This document shows positions 4,291-16,159 of a DNA stretch of 64,000 bases, one piece after another. This DNA comes from Dictyostelium discoideum (taxonomy: Eukaryota): assembly GCA_000004695.1 (NCBI GenBank), contig CM000154.2:416001-480000 (forward strand), given 5' to 3'. The number at the start of each line of letters is the position of its first letter. Within the stretch, counting starts at the first letter, position 1. A program made the translations under genes and the position numbers. The notes beneath the pieces are model-generated. The model was not told the DNA's origin, did no database searches, and saw only the letters and a program-made list of their open reading frames with translations.

Positions 4291-5614
4291 TTATGGAATT
4301 GTAATTTTTGATTCATCAATATGATGACTATGAATTTGTTGTTTAGAATCTGAAACTCTCATCATTCTTGGTTTAAGGAAAGAATATTCTAGTGATACAT
4401 CAGTATCAATATCCAATTCATCAGCACAATGTAATGGCCAGAATGGGTCCCTTAAGAAAGCACGTGCCATCATAACAATATCACATTTATTGGTTTCTAA
4501 AATACTATCAGCTTCATTTGGTTTATTAATTAAACCAACGGCAGCAGTTTTTAAATTTGTATTTCTCTTTATTTGTTCTGCAAATTTAACTTGGTATAAT
4601 GGACCACCTTGAATTTTTTGATCAATTGAATTACCACCAGATGAGCAGTCAAGAATATCCTGTATATAATTATTAAAATTATTATTATTATTAGAATATA
4701 TATGTGATATAGTTAATTTATTGGAAAAACTTACAACACCAAGAGATTCAAGAATTTTAGCTAAACGAACAGTATCTTCTATATGCCAACCATCTTTCAC
4801 CCATTCTTCACAAGATAATCTTACTGATAATGGTTTTGACATTGGCCAAACGGTACGGACAGCTTTAACAATATCAATTAAGAATTTAATACGACCATTA
4901 AAATCACCACCATATTGATCGGTACGTTTATTTGAAGTTGGTGAAAGGAATGATGAAATTAAATAACCATGAGCACCATGAATTTCAATCATATCGAAAC
5001 CAATTTTTAAACATCTTTCAGCTGATTCCCTAAATTGATTAATAACAATATTGATATCATCTAATGTCATTTCTTTTGGCACTGTTGAACCTGGACCCCA
5101 TGAAATATCAGATGGTCCAATTGGTAACCATCCATGTCCATTTGTATCATCAATTGGAATACTTTCATTTCTTTTTCCTAAAAATGGTGGATGAGTTGAT
5201 GCTTTACGACCTGCATGAGCAATTTGAATTGATGTTTTCTATTTAAAATAATAAAAAAAAAAAATAAATAATTATTAGTTTTTAATTAATTAAATAAATA
5301 AAATAAAAAAAAAAAATAAAAAAAAAAAATATAAACATACACAATCAAATTGACGAATGAAATTAACAATTCTTTTTAATGGTTCCATTTGTTCATCTTT
5401 CCATAATCCTGCATCTGCATACGTAATTCTACCGATATCACTTACTGCAGTGGCCTCCATAACAATCATAGAGGCACCACCCCTTGCAAATGTACCATAA
5501 TGCACTAAATGGTAATCACTCATAAATCCATCAATACTAAAATATTTAATATTATTTTTTATTTTTATTTTAAAAAAATAAAAAAATAATTATAGATTAA
5601 TAAAAAGAAATTAT

Positions 5615-7224: not shown

Positions 7225-8019
7225 CTAAAAAACAGATATTTTTTTTTTATCTATTTTTAAAAAAAGATATACCTTTTTTTTTTAATTAAAAAAAATGTTT
7301 AGAAAAAAAAAAAAAAAAAAATTAAAAACCGAGATAATTTCTGTGATTCTCGAAAAAAATAATAAAAATAATAATACAAAAAGAAACTTCATGGAAAAAA
7401 AAGAAAAAAGAAAAAAGAAAATCTAATATCCTACACACGACAGTTCATAATTATAGTGCAATTGCAAAATAAAAAAATCGGTTAGGGGTGGATAATTAAA
7501 TAATCAAAAAAAAAAACAATTTTTAAAAAAAAAAATAAAAAAATTAAAAATTCGTGTGTGTAACTGACAACAAATCATTCTTAAAAAAAAAATAAAAAAT
7601 AAAAAATATCATTGCATGTGAATATGATAACTAAAAAAAAAAAACTTCCTTAATTAAAAATAAAAAAAAAACTCAAAGTCATTTAATTAATAATCATCTC
7701 AAATATAAACAAAATTTTAGTACTAAAATTATTATTATTATTATTTTTATTATAATAATTATAATAATAAAAAAAAAAAAAAAAAAAATTTTCATATTAT
7801 TTTATTTATATCTTTTATTTATTTTTATCTTTTTATTTTTATTATTAATTTTATAATTTATTTTCATTTCTTTTTTTTTTAGTTGATATATATTTTTTTA
7901 TTATTCATTTATGTCTACGGCTCACAAAAAAAAAAATTAAAAATAAAAAAAAAAATTAAAAATTAAAAAAAAAAAAAAAAAAAAAAATTAAAATAATTTT
8001 TTTTTTTTAATTTTTTATT

Positions 8020-8445
8020 TTAATTATTGACTCTTCTACTTTCTCTTTTGTTACTAACAGATGAAGTTTCGTTTGAAAATCTTTTGGTAAAATCAGCATC
8101 AGATTGTAATTGATTAGCTCTTTTTTTACCCGTTTTGTTTTTGTTTGATTGAGTTGTGATTCCACCATTATTGGAAGTTGTTGCAGCTTCATGTGTTGAT
8201 CTAACTTCGGTGGTAGAGTGCTCGATTGCTTTTTCAACTAGGTCATCTGTTGATTTTCTTTTGGTTATTTCGATATCCCTTTGCAATTTATTTTACTTGT
8301 CTCCGCCTCTCTAAATTCAACATTTACTTTGTACTTCAAATCATTTTTATCAATAGTAACTTCGTTAAATAATACACCAAATTCATCACTTTGATTGAAT
8401 TCAACATCTTTAAATTCCAAAAAAGCGACATCTTCGGGTGGAAAA
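8020..8445 (-). CDS. hypothetical protein; structure unresolved, two adjacent open frames
   Basis: Minus-strand frame A encodes PEDVAFLEFKDVEFNQSDEFGVLFNEVTIDKNDLKYKVNVEFREAETSK (8292..8445). Frame B encodes QRDIEITKRKSTDDLVEKAIEHSTTEVRSTHEAATTSNNGG...KRESRRVNN (8020..8283); its 'M' in the ORF track is a TTG. There is no convincing intron between them and no ATG for frame A. Confidence 0.25.
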
Positions 8446-8590
8446 ATAAAAAAATAAAAAAAAAAAATACTTTTTAATTTTTTTAATTTTTTTTTTATAT
8501 TTTTTTTTTTAATTTTTTTTTTTTATTTTATTTTTTAAAGTTTCGAACAATTATATATAAAAAAAAAGTAAAAGATATCCCTTCGGTCAA

Positions 8591-8605
8591 TTAAATAATA
8601 GTAAT

Positions 8606-8649
<44 letters not shown>

Positions 8650-8651
8650 TA

Positions 8652-8741
<90 letters not shown>
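8591..8741. repeat. (AAT)n microsatellite, about 50 units
   Basis: Uninterrupted aataataat run. Confidence 0.95.
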
Positions 8742-8745
<4 letters not shown>

Positions 8746-9126
8746 CTTAAATATACAAAAAAAAAATAAAAAAATAAAAAAATAAAAAAAATAAAAAAAA
8801 AAAAATAGAATGAAATGAAATAAAATAAAATAAAAAAAAGAAATACAGAATTTCTTTAAAGAAACTTATTTCGAAATTGTTTAAACAATCATACAGTTTA
8901 AAATTAAATAAATTGTTTTAAACCACCACTTTTTTTGAACACATGAAAATAAATAAGAAATAAAAATAAAAAGATAAAAAAAGATTTTTTTTTTTTTTTT
9001 ATTTTATAATTATTCTTGTCATCAGTATTGTTACTGTAATTAATCCCATGAGTTTTTTTTTATTATTTTTAATTCTTTTATATTTGAGATGATTATTAAT
9101 TAAATGACTTTGAGTTTTTTTTTTAT

Positions 9127-9312
9127 TTTTCTATGCCCAAAATTACCATATTAATTTCGGCAGCCATATTAATTTCAGCCTAAAATAGTTGGTCTGTGCA
9201 TGCCAAAATTAATATGGCTGCTGAAATTAATGTGGTAATTCTAGCAGACATAAGTCCCATGCCAAAATTACCATATTAATTTCAGCAGCCATATTAATTT
9301 TGGCATGGGACA
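9127..9312. repeat. three copies of a roughly 45-bp unit in alternating orientation (A+, B-, C+); copy C is itself a near-perfect palindrome
   Basis: 9133..9180 ATGCCCAAAATTACCATATTAATTTCGGCAGCCATATTAATTTCAGCC; 9199..9240 is its reverse complement; 9257..9310 CCCATGCCAAAATTACCATATTAATTTCAGCAGCCATATTAATTTTGGCATGGG has 15-bp self-complementary ends. Confidence 0.7.
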
Positions 9313-10033: not shown

Positions 10034-10484
10034 AGTAATTTTGGTTGAAATATTTAAAAAATTTTAGATATTTTTATTTTGGTTGGAAAAATAGAAAAAA
10101 AAAAAAATTATTTAAAACTCATTGTGCAACAACTATTTTAATCAAGATCCATCTCCCCAAATTATCGACAATTTCTTTTCTTTTCTTTTTTTATCGTAAA
10201 TTTTTTTTTAAAAATAGCAACATATTTTTTATAAAAAAAAAAAAGAAAAAAAAAAAGAAAAATAAATACCAAACTTTTTCTTAATTCCCAAGGCTTTATT
10301 TTTGCCTAAATCATTTGTTTTATAATATTTGCAGGCCAGTCCAACTGACCAATGAAATTAAAATATTTTTTCTGAAAATATGATTAGATTTCTAAAAAAA
10401 AAAAAAATGTTTAAAAATTGTTTGTTCACTTTCAAAATAAAATCTTTTTCAACCACGTTTTTTATTTTATTTAATTTTTTTTTT

Positions 10485-10672
10485 ATAAACAAAATTTTCT
10501 CCAATTCTCAAGAACAATGTGGTTGTGATTGGATATTTTCCACCCAAATGCATGATGGCTTTCTGAAAGTCTTGCATATTTATAAAAAACAGACAAAAAT
10601 TTGGGTTAAAATTTGAGCAAATTAGAATTTCAAATAATAAAATAGAGCCAATAAAAAAATAGTATGGCGTCT
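10485..10672 (-). other. orphan exon-like ORF with no start codon; ends at a stop
   Basis: Minus strand, after a TAG/CTATAG: TPYYFFIGSILLFEILICSNFNPNFCLFFINMQDFQKAIMHLGGKYPITTTLFLRIGENFVYKKKN*. The codon usage is Dictyostelium-like. No upstream exon was found. Confidence 0.25.
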
Positions 10673-10995
10673 ATAGAAGCCCTCAAAATATGTGGACATA
10701 CCAAAAAGGGAAATTTTTTACTATAGAAAATAATTAATTTTAATTTTTTGTAAAATTTTTTTGTATAAAAATAATTTTTTTTTTTTTTTTTTTTTTTCAT
10801 TCCAAATTAAACTCAAGTATTTAAATAAATCAAATAAATCAAATAAATCAAATAAAAAATCAATTTAAAATGAATCAAGTAAATAAAAAAAATAAAAAAA
10901 AATTATTTTCCAAACATTTTTATTTTTTTTTAAAATACTAATCACAATAATATTTTTTTTTTTTCTTTTTTTTTTTTCTCTTTTTTAAATTATAG

Positions 10996-11091
10996 AACTA
11001 TAGCACCAACACCACCATCAACAACAGCACTGAGGATCTCCACAACAATGACAATACTCACAACAATGAGAGTACCTACAATGAAGATGCC

Positions 11092-11180
<89 letters not shown>

Positions 11181-11627
11181 CGACGACGACAATCAAAACA
11201 ATAATTGCACAATGTGTCTTTCAGATAAAATGTGCTTTTCCTGTAAGATTATGAAAATTAGGCACGAAGCAGCTATCAAAATTTTTTATAATAGTTTAGG
11301 CTTAAGTCCGCCCCCTGCTGCCAATACTGGTTTTGCTAATGGTGGCACTGGCGTTGCCGATGACCATCCTGATGTTGAAAATTCCTCTGATATTTTTTAA
11401 ACGAATCGGCTGGTGTTGATAATCAACCCTCTACTGCCAATGAATATGATGATGATGATAGTTTCGATGGTGAATCCTATGTCTCTTTATCTGAATATGA
11501 TTCAGAAGATAGAAGGATGTTCATAGCCCAAGATGCTGAATATTATGCCAATGCTCCTTTTGAAGATCTACGAGGTGAGACCATTCATAAATGTCTTTTT
11601 AACCTTGATTCATATTTTGATTATTAT

Positions 11628-11685
<58 letters not shown>

Positions 11686-11786
11686 GAACTACCACTACAA
11701 CTACCACTACAACTACAACTTCATCGTCCAATAATTATAATAATAGTGATAGTGATAATGATGATGATGATATTAACAATAATTAA
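10996..11786 (+). CDS. Asn/Thr-rich hypothetical ORF with an apparent +2 frameshift; possibly a degenerate or transposon-derived gene
   Basis: Frame 1 (10996..11400): NYSTNTTINNSTEDLHNNDNTHNNESTYNEDA(N)n NDDDNQNNNCTMCLSDKMCFSCKIMKIRHEAAIKIFYNSLGLSPPPAANTGFANGGTGVADDHPDVENSSDIF*. Frame 0 (11400..11786): NESAGVDNQPSTANEYDDDDSFDGESYVSLSEYDSEDRRMFIAQDAEYYANAPFEDLRGETIHKCLFNLDSYFDYYY(N)n(T)n...*. Codons CCG CCC GCC GGC CTG GAC are frequent in 11270..11480, which is unusual for this genome. (CAA)n at 11087..11192. Confidence 0.35.
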
Positions 11787-12198
11787 TATTATCCATAGTT
11801 GGAATAATAGTTTTAATGTAATTGATACCAAGATTGGTGGAAAGACTAATTGCCGATGAACTTTTCCAATCATCCTTTTTACACATAAAGAAAACTACTG
11901 GTTAAAAATTAATTTTAAAAAAAAAAAAAAATAAAAAAAAAATAAATAAATAAAAAAAAAATTAACTATAGAATTTTTTAAACATTTTGTTTTTATGATT
12001 TATTTATATTTATTTATTTTCAAAGTAATAATAATAATAATAATAATATTAAATAAATAAATGACATCTAATAAAAATATATAGGTATATCGAATATAAC
12101 TTTTCAATTTGTCACATTAATTTTGATCGTTTTTTATTTTTTTTTTTCCCACTTTTTTATTTTTTTTTTTTTTTATTTTTTCATTTTTATTTTTTAAA

Positions 12199-12233
<35 letters not shown>

Positions 12234-12286
12234 ATAATAATAATAATAACATTTTTTTTTAATTTAAAATTGTTTATTTTATAATT

Positions 12287-12482
12287 TTATTTACAAAAAA
12301 TTCCAATTGATAAAGATACACATAAAATAAAACTTAATTTTGCAGTTTTTAAGTCCCAATGTTTATAATTTCCATTTTTTGTATCCTTAAAAATATTATA
12401 TAAAGAGGTAATTGTGATTATAGTTGGTAAATTTAAATAAATATTATTATAAATAATTGATAATATAAATAAATAAAAATAA

Positions 12483-12527
<45 letters not shown>

Positions 12528-13322
12528 GACAAGAAATTCCCAATTAGTTTTTTTTTTTTTATTTTTTTTTTTTTATAATTAAATATATACATACAAAAAA
12601 TAAATTGAAAAATAAATTGAATATGATAAATTTTCACCTATTATTATTGGAATTGTAATTATATTTGATATTTTATCATTTTTTAAATCTCTAATATTAT
12701 TGGAAAAGATAATGGTGCAACAAGAGATAGTTAAGATCATTGAATAATTAAAAATTTCATTAAAATAATCTTTAAATAATTGTATATTTTGAAAATAAAT
12801 TGGAAATGGAACAATTGAAAACAAATTGAAAGATGCACTAATTTCGCCCAATGCTCTATATTTAAATGATATTGGTGGAGCTGTATAGAAATGTGATATA
12901 AATGATATAGTAATTGTAATTGGTAAAACATGGTAAATGGTTTCATTGAATTGTAAATTACAATTAACTAATAAAGTAATCAATGAAATTAAAACACCCA
13001 AATAGGTAATTTTAATAAAAAATTCTATATCATTTAGTGTTATTTTAATTGAATTTTGAAATAATGTTCTATCAGCTGACGTTTCTTTTTTATCCAATCC
13101 ATTTATAAAATCATAATAGGTATTTACTAAATTTGAAATATTATTTAAAAAATATAATACTAAAAAACTTAAACAAAATCTAAAAATATTGAATCCATTA
13201 CCCAAATTTACTTCATTTTTTATGAAAAATGATAAACTTATTAAACTTCCTGATATAAGAAATGATGTTGACCAAATTCTTGTTGAATTAATATATTTAT
13301 AGATAAAATATGATAATTCCAT
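12287..13322 (-). CDS. UbiA-family prenyltransferase, UBIAD1/MenA-like. Exons 12595..13322 and 12287..12485
   Basis: ...[40 protein letters not shown]... matches the human UBIAD1 motif [25 protein letters not shown] (N-x3-D-x5-D prenyl-diphosphate site). It is a polytopic membrane protein. GTATGT donor; the 3' exon encodes ...LNLPTIITITSLYNIFKDTKNGNYKHWDLKTAKLSFILCVSLSIGIFCK*. Confidence 0.75.
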
Positions 13323-13536
13323 TTTAAAATAAAAAAAATAAATAAAAAAAAAAAAGAAAAAAAAAAAAGAAAAGATAATAAATAAATAAATAAAAAATAA
13401 ACTTTATAGTTTTTTTTTTTTTTTTTTTTTTTAAAAAAATAAAATATTTTTTTTTTTTTTTTAAAAAATTTCAATAATCCTTTAATTTAATTATGCCCAA
13501 TACAAAGGTTTTTGTTTAAAAACTGAAAAAAAAGGG

Positions 13537-13636
13537 NNNNNNNNNNNNNNNNNNNNNNNNNNNNNNNNNNNNNNNNNNNNNNNNNNNNNNNNNNNNNNNN
13601 NNNNNNNNNNNNNNNNNNNNNNNNNNNNNNNNNNNN
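13537..13636. other. assembly gap (100 N)
   Basis: A run of n characters. Confidence 0.99.
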
Positions 13637-16077: not shown

Positions 16078-16159
16078 TGTAAGCTAAGGGATTCGAACCC
16101 TTGTATCAATGATATTGCAGCCTTAATGCAACCCCTTAGACCAGCTCGGGCAAGCTTAC
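16078..16159 (-). tRNA. tRNA-Leu (anticodon AAG), class II with long variable arm
   Basis: Reverse complement GTAAGCTTGCCCGAGCTGGTCTAAGGGGTTGCATTAAGGCTGCAATATCATTGATACAAGGGTTCGAATCCCTTAGCTTACA. It has a 7-bp acceptor stem, a D arm, an anticodon stem TTGCA/TGCAA with loop TTAAGGC, a 13-nt variable stem-loop and T-loop GGTTCGAATCC. Confidence 0.85.

Follow-up and report, generated by a model that had tools for sequence, protein, structure and literature searches.

The DNA analyzed here (64,000 nucleotides of Dictyostelium discoideum AX4, referred to as the window) contains two long open reading frames that abut on the plus strand between 10996 and 11786. The question raised by this locus is whether they are the remains of a transposable element or a foreign gene, one host gene split by a sequencing error, or a host gene that is really broken. 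The results point to the last of these. Very probably, 10870 to 11786 (+) is one two-exon nuclear gene that is restricted to the D. discoideum species complex and that was truncated by a frameshift in the NC4 lineage, the two abutting frames being parts of one gene.

Gene structure and the two open frames

Both frames announced in the preliminary description are real. Frame A is open from 10996 to 11397 and ends with a TAA at 11398-11400, and frame B is open from 11391 to 11786, the shift from A to B being -1 (equivalent to +2). The peptides quoted for them (CTMCLSDKMCFSCK, DDDDSFDGESYVSLSEYDSEDRR, and IAQDAEYYANAPFEDLRGETIHKCLF) were all present. Overall, the window has a GC content of 21% and a single 100-N gap at 13537-13636. 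Two open frames cover the whole of the 428-nt nonrepetitive core of the region (11203-11630), as happened in only 9 of 5,000 composition-matched shuffles, so that their presence is more than chance. The reading of the two frames as coding parts of a former single ORF is supported.

For comparison, syntenic DNA was taken from six other assemblies via the adjoining UbiA prenyltransferase gene. Two of them, ACTFIY and ACTFIZ, are genomes of “D. cf. discoideum” (cryptic sister species), and in both the orthologue is intact and in a single frame. It is found at 7517-8482 of the ACTFIY locus (L003), where it is annotated as 321 aa (330 aa with the micro-exon described below), and at 7741-9075 of the ACTFIZ locus (L007), with 398 aa. 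Both orthologues are convergent with UbiA, in the same position and with the same upstream region as the AX4 gene. A further comparison was provided by L001 (GCA_054883475.1), an independent de novo assembly of a sister laboratory strain.

Frame A is coding-like already from 10996. However, it has a TAG at 10993-10995 and its first ATG lies only at 11212, so the Asn-rich part needs the splicing of 10879-10995. Exon 1, supported by the sequence and by the gene call in L001, consists of 9 nt (10870..10878, +) reading ATG AAT CAA (Met-Asn-Gln), and is followed by a very AT-rich intron of 117 nt (10879..10995, +; GTAAAT...TTATAG), known from the L001 call and the structure of the orthologues, whose removal joins exon 1 in phase to 10996. 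By alignment, the conserved counterparts of the micro-exon are ATGAATCAAGTAAAT in ACTFIY and ATGAATAGAGTAAAT in ACTFIZ, and the annotated 398-aa product of the latter can be reproduced only with the micro-exon and the intron, both of which are conserved in the three genomes. Exon 2 as now translated (frame A, 10996..11400, +) comprises 134 codons plus the TAA at 11398-11400, and gives with exon 1 a 137-aa product. The L001 gene call at 7910-8440, equivalent to 10870-11400 in the window, has this same 137-aa product and the same coordinates.

Along exon 2, a (CAA/AAC)37 repeat encoding poly-Asn (11091..11201, +) precedes a first conserved block (block 1, 11206..11316, +), recognized by its invariant Cys residues, its dN/dS, and an AlphaFold2 prediction. 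Block 1 comprises C-x2-C-x5-C-x2-C, a predicted helix (KIMKIRHEAAIKIFYNSLGL), and SPPP, in this order; its consensus in the orthologues is the Cys motif plus K-I-[LM]-K-I-R-x-E-A-A-x-K-I-F-x-N-x-x-G-L-S-P-P. None of the four Cys varies among the three orthologues, nor does their spacing. Of the zinc-knuckle-like motif of the preliminary description, the C-x2-C-x5-C-x2-C spacing and the four conserved Cys stand, but the motif is not a retroviral CCHC knuckle. AlphaFold2 run on a single sequence of the 71-aa Cys-helix fragment gave a low-confidence model (mean pLDDT 54) with a helix at residues 14 to 37 and the rest disordered, and the four invariant Cys suggest a small metal-binding knuckle that might be capped by this basic amphipathic helix.

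Beyond the frameshift site (T6A3 run, 11393..11401, +, located by protein and DNA alignments), the former C-terminal coding region follows in frame B (11400..11786, +), with 128 codons plus a TAA at 11784-11786, now out of frame and downstream of the stop. By alignment, a second conserved block (block 2, 11463..11609, +; FDGESYVSLSEYDSEDRRMF...KCLFNLD), acidic and aromatic, can still be recognized there, with the consensus Y-D-D-D..F-D-G-x-x-Y-V-S-L-S-x-Y-D-x-E-D-R..L-F-x-x-D. The former C terminus carries (AAT)n poly-Asn and ACT/ACC/ACA poly-Thr tracts (11629..11720, +).

Between the two blocks, the relatives have a hypervariable tandem array, of 21 nt by 8.2 copies in ACTFIY and of 15 nt by 17.7 plus 21 nt by 11.4 in ACTFIZ. 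Tandem Repeats Finder (TRF) detected no array at the equivalent position of AX4. There, the “GC-rich” stretch at 11317..11392 (+) aligns to the arrays of both relatives and retains about three degenerate heptads (ANTGF / ANGGTGV / ADDHPDV), i.e., the AX4 repeat array has collapsed, which is a sign of decay. The intact product would be an Asn-rich, mostly disordered protein, in which the four-Cys motif and helix would be followed by a hypervariable repeat linker (rich in Ala, Asn, Val, Gly, and Asp) and an acidic C-terminal block.

The frameshift site

At the junction of the frames, AX4 reads ATT TTT TA AAC GAA TCG, versus ATT GCC AAC GAA TCC in ACTFIY and GTT GCC AAT GAA in ACTFIZ. Removing 2 nt from the AX4 sequence gives a gapless protein alignment across the junction (SSDIF|NESAGV versus HSEIA|NESSGV and SSSVA|NELSSV), and the lesion is therefore a net gain of 2 nt at the T6A3 run (11393-11401). 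Such a net +2-nt (that is, -1) change in the NC4 laboratory lineage, represented by AX4 and most likely AX2-214, puts the TAA at 11398-11400 in frame. Translation would then end after 137 aa, with the loss of the last 128 ancestral codons.

An error in the sequence or the assembly, suspected near the assembly gap in the preliminary description, would turn the locus into a normal single-frame gene with a miscounted homopolymer in the 2005 Sanger assembly. The shift does sit in a T6A3 run, and the 100-N gap at 13537-13636 is 2.1 kb away. The assemblies used for comparison derive from a Nanopore plus Illumina de novo study of nine wild isolates and a sole laboratory strain, AX2-214, whose assembly has an N50 of 5.3 Mb (PMC12745789). 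From this published strain list and its near-identity to AX4, L001 is most likely AX2-214. That it is an independent assembly follows from the gap, which it closes, and from the 24 events that separate it from the window over 7.3 kb, none of them between 10010 and 12200. Most of these events alter the length of long homopolymer or simple-repeat runs, much longer than the one at the frameshift; others are substitutions clustered at the edge of the gap. From 10700 to 12000, 1.3 kb around the site, L001 is 100% identical to the window, T6A3 run included, and since it also calls the 137-aa product, the frameshift is not a sequencing error. Besides, the relatives have GCC versus TTTTA in AX4, which is more than a change of length. 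An error at the site is hence extremely unlikely and can be considered effectively excluded; the frame is disrupted with respect to intact syntenic orthologues, and the disruption is reproduced in independent sequence.

The gap itself is bridged in L001, where the aligned flanks end at 5395 and 5787, ca. 390 nt apart. Immediately to its left, the window (13433-13518) disagrees with L001 at numerous bases, suggesting sequence of low quality at the gap edge.

AX2 and AX4 descend separately from NC4, and consequently the truncated allele is probably older than axenic selection.

We also considered that AX4 might still make the full-length protein by a programmed -1 frameshift or transcriptional slippage at U UUU UAA. 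With UAA occupying the A site, tRNA-Phe in the P site could slip from one UUU onto the other, overlapping one; moreover, frame B has remained open over 132 codons, and its block 2 shows no more visible decay than the counterpart in ACTFIY. Against this, the orthologues are in a single frame, so that there is no conserved recoding signal, and the frame A reading (GAU AUU UUU UAA) does not provide a canonical X XXY YYZ heptamer. Neither does the downstream sequence (11401-11490) form an unusually stable structure, with a folding energy of -13.3 kcal/mol (z = +0.76), matched or exceeded in stability by 158 of 200 shuffles. Recoding is for these reasons hardly credible; the product expected if it did take place would contain the junction peptide ...SSDIFLNESAGV.... 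As another way of bridging the frames, 42 candidate GT-AG introns were inspected and rejected, as all of them have 37 to 42% GC and delete conserved blocks.

Base composition and homology searches

The preliminary description gave ca. 50% GC for 11270-11480 and saw in it a codon usage foreign to the genome. The measured value was 40.3%, and the highest GC of any 200-nt window was 42.5%. When this segment is read in the correct frames, its GC1/GC2/GC3 values are 0.56/0.44/0.23, a GC3 that is within the range of the 19 long ORFs of the window (0.03 to 0.26; mean over 70-codon windows, 0.16) and is equaled or surpassed by 22% of the 70-codon windows in these ORFs. The codon usage is thus not foreign, and the GC3 outside the host range that would be expected of a horizontally acquired gene was not found. 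Frame A only appears to have a high GC3 (0.55) because of the (CAA/AAC)37 repeat, and the CTG codon cited earlier results from reading on past the stop in the wrong frame; the correct reading there is TCG GCT GGT. The total GC of the segment (40 to 41%) does fall in the top 4% of 210-nt coding windows here, but only via codon positions 1 and 2. With a host-like GC3, the excess therefore reflects amino acid composition and not synonymous choice: the GC-rich middle is the shrunken remnant of the repeat linker, whose Gly, Ala, Val, Asp, and Pro codons raise GC1 and GC2. In a very AT-rich genome, raised local GC can stem from amino acid composition alone.

The homology searches yielded no true homologue. 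No Pfam family matched the repaired core at an E value of ≤10, and the three full-length proteins gave only low-complexity noise in Pfam; likewise, a profile search of the PDB returned only poly-Asn/Asp noise below the cutoffs. In a word-index search of 5.8 billion proteins, neither the repaired core nor a conserved-block profile of the three orthologues (E ≤ 10) had any match. An exhaustive phmmer search with the frame A block against 1.84 billion representatives yielded four matches, which were rejected as artifacts since they are internally repetitive proteins (TPR-like and similar) without the Cys motif. The protein collections searched are mostly prokaryotic and metagenomic. The 137-, 321-, and 398-aa products are called as genes in their assemblies, but when looked up by exact sequence they were absent from the protein collection, and window ORFs looked up in the same way were not on record either. 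Two ORFs of the window are exact AX4 proteins, DDB_G0287655 (27153-28172) and an H5-like alpha/beta hydrolase (48998-50011). Low-complexity proteins may be underrepresented in the collection, and results without homologues need care in their case.

A decaying transposable element or a horizontally acquired gene, as proposed in the preliminary description, would be in keeping with the high total GC, with the variable presence of the locus among isolates, and with its location in the relatives, where a tRNA gene is found downstream of it and the surrounding region contains transposase- and integrase-like fragments. However, no homology to Gag, reverse transcriptase (RT), RNase H, integrase, tyrosine recombinase, or DDE transposase was detected in the ORF by Pfam, phmmer, or profile searches, with no true match among the 1.84 or 5.8 billion proteins. 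The 64-kb window contains a single copy, with one syntenic copy at each locus, and a search for long terminal or terminal inverted repeats (LTR/TIR) between 7000 and 13000 found only A/T low-complexity repeats. Homologues in a donor lineage were not found either, and the host-type GTAAAT...TAG intron with its micro-exon in three genomes, the stable synteny with UbiA, and the host-like GC3 all speak for a resident gene. A mobile or foreign origin is accordingly very unlikely. Dictyostelium retroelements target tRNA genes, and the transposase- and integrase-like fragments around the relatives' locus are separate from the orphan ORF and are expected near a Dictyostelium tRNA gene.

Such fragments were seen in two of the loci. 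In ACTFIY, DDE-transposase-like ORFs (...HLLQPLD...) and an rve integrase flank the locus (L003 10712-11546, minus strand, and 12080-13004, plus strand), and in ACTFIR (L002 1-2035 and ca. 8035-8232) there are a Skipper-like RT/RNase H, a zf-CCHC Gag, and a Tc1-like fragment.

Neighborhood and presence of the gene

By tblastn and blastn, no trace of the gene was found beside UbiA in ACTFIR and ACTFIW, two wild D. discoideum isolates, or in D. citrinum and D. firmibasis (at this locus only). Within 1.2 to 1.7 kb after UbiA, a tRNA gene and a large gene (ca. 3,200 aa, with MOR2-PAG1_N and RGS domains in D. citrinum) are encountered in ACTFIR, ACTFIW, and D. citrinum, and in D. firmibasis the next called gene encodes a 1,322-aa protein without any Pfam match. 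ACTFIZ has the same tRNA and large gene, with ca. 4 kb of extra DNA between, orphan gene included. The tRNA gene after UbiA, of 73 nt, was identified by Rfam in four of the five loci scanned (L002 7366-7438, L006 8030-8102, L004 7822-7894, and L007 12192-12264). Neither its counterpart nor the ca. 3,200-aa gene was found in the 64-kb AX4 window; synteny is therefore broken in AX4 on the left side of the orphan gene, where a 126-aa gene and a methylmalonyl-CoA mutase lie instead. From these sequences, the orphan gene appears limited to part of the discoideum complex and would be dispensable, or else relocated in the other genomes. On the corresponding side of UbiA, Rfam also identified an 82-nt tRNA gene in L003, L004, L006, and L007, and the window has a tRNA-Leu (anticodon AAG) at 16078-16159 (-).

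The noncoding DNA upstream of the gene (10380-10870) is better conserved than the gene itself, with 86% mean column identity among AX4, ACTFIY, and ACTFIZ, and 10233-10695 has 91% identity between AX4 and ACTFIY. It contains long invariant blocks, among them TATTTTCCACCCAAATG and GTCTATAGAAGC..CTCAA.ATATGTGGACATACCAA.AAGGGAAA, the latter followed by a T run. A minus-strand ORF (10470-10670) is open in all three genomes, with mostly nonsynonymous changes, and Rfam gave no match for 10380-10870. The region might act as a promoter or encode a small RNA not yet described. Farther upstream, ca. 1.6 kb from the orphan gene and inside the span of the 126-aa L001 gene (window ca. 8036-9309, minus strand), 9209-9297 matches the mir-7131 precursor (Rfam RF03716) on both strands with 93.8 bits (gathering score 74, E = 4.6e-21). 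It folds into a near-perfect hairpin of ca. 50 bp (-73.1 kcal/mol, z = -14.3). At the gathering score, mir-7131 was not found in the L002, L003, L004, L006, and L007 loci, and a literature search for it returned no papers.

Constraint, decay, and comparison with known systems

The two blocks differ in their constraint. Rough estimates of dN/dS were 0.10 to 0.21 for block 1 (37 codons) and ca. 0.8 to 1.2 for block 2 (48 codons), the latter with an unusually low dS and also between the two intact orthologues. As the value is near 1 even there, strong constraint may never have acted on the C-terminal half, whose loss may cost little. Between AX4 and ACTFIY, dS is 1.12 in block 1 (11206-11316) versus 0.11 in block 2 (11463-11609), a ca. 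10-fold difference (Fisher P = 5e-4), and TATGTCTCTTTATCTGA is identical in all three genomes. This contrast in dS may come from codon degeneracy and AT mutation bias in the Asp-, Glu-, and Tyr-rich block 2, or from constraint at the nucleotide level. With ACTFIZ as the outgroup, block 1 accumulated 8 nonsynonymous and 7 synonymous changes on the AX4 branch versus 0 and 5 on that of ACTFIY (Fisher P = 0.055), and these 20 substitutions suggest that constraint might be relaxed on the AX4 branch.

It could also be that the 137-aa product is functional in the NC4 lineage, i.e., that an adaptive or neutral shortening kept the Cys-helix module and that the allele is not a pseudogene. Block 1, the sole part clearly under purifying selection, is wholly upstream of the stop, block 2 is near neutrality even in the intact orthologues, and the AX2-214 annotation calls the gene. 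Nonetheless, the nonsynonymous changes on the AX4 branch of block 1, and the absence of the whole gene at the locus in two other D. discoideum isolates, make a functional short form somewhat unlikely. We infer instead that the AX4 allele represents a partial or complete loss of function in a dispensable gene that is being lost. In this respect, the preliminary description was probably right in taking the frameshift as a mark of decay, and the gene is probably a young, dispensable orphan of the host decaying in the NC4 lineage.

A more far-reaching proposal, which we regard as doubtful, is that the gene is of recent origin, born in the ancestor of the complex, perhaps de novo out of intergenic DNA rich in repeats beside a tRNA gene, and is now midway through a cycle of birth and death. 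It would then be intact in two sister species, deleted at the locus in two wild isolates, and frameshifted in NC4, whose short product would keep the only constrained module. A less likely variant has the full-length AX4 protein still being made by -1 slippage at U UUU UAA.

For annotation, the AX4 locus should be labeled as a frameshift-truncated allele of a single gene, rather than as a pair of ORFs, a transposon, or a gene of foreign origin. Beyond annotation its significance is slight, although it is a small and clean example of the fast turnover of lineage-restricted, repeat-containing genes within the D. discoideum complex, here by array expansion and collapse, whole-gene presence or absence, and frameshift.

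Among known systems, the zf-CCHC knuckle of Gag (PF00098), found for example in the Skipper Gag-like ORF at L002 468-2035, is likewise a short Cys-rich motif starting with C-x2-C. However, its pattern is C-x2-C-x4-H-x4-C, whereas the orphan motif (C-x2-C-x5-C-x2-C) has a fourth Cys and no His, and unlike retroviral or retrotransposon Gag the orphan gene has no adjoining protease, RT, or integrase. Programmed -1 sites share with this locus two overlapping long frames, -1 related, that meet at a U-rich run, but here the heptamer is noncanonical, no structure follows it, and the orthologues lack the shift. The closest likeness is to the orphan Asn-rich genes of D. discoideum, which also have poly-Asn (AAC/AAT) and poly-Thr tracts and a short AT-rich intron after a tiny exon 1, with no homologues beyond close relatives, presence or absence among isolates, and frame disruption with respect to orthologues. 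The specific family, with its four Cys and helix, variable repeat, and acidic block, is undescribed; compared with known orphan Asn-rich genes with strain-specific truncation (unitary pseudogenes in the making), nothing essential differs.
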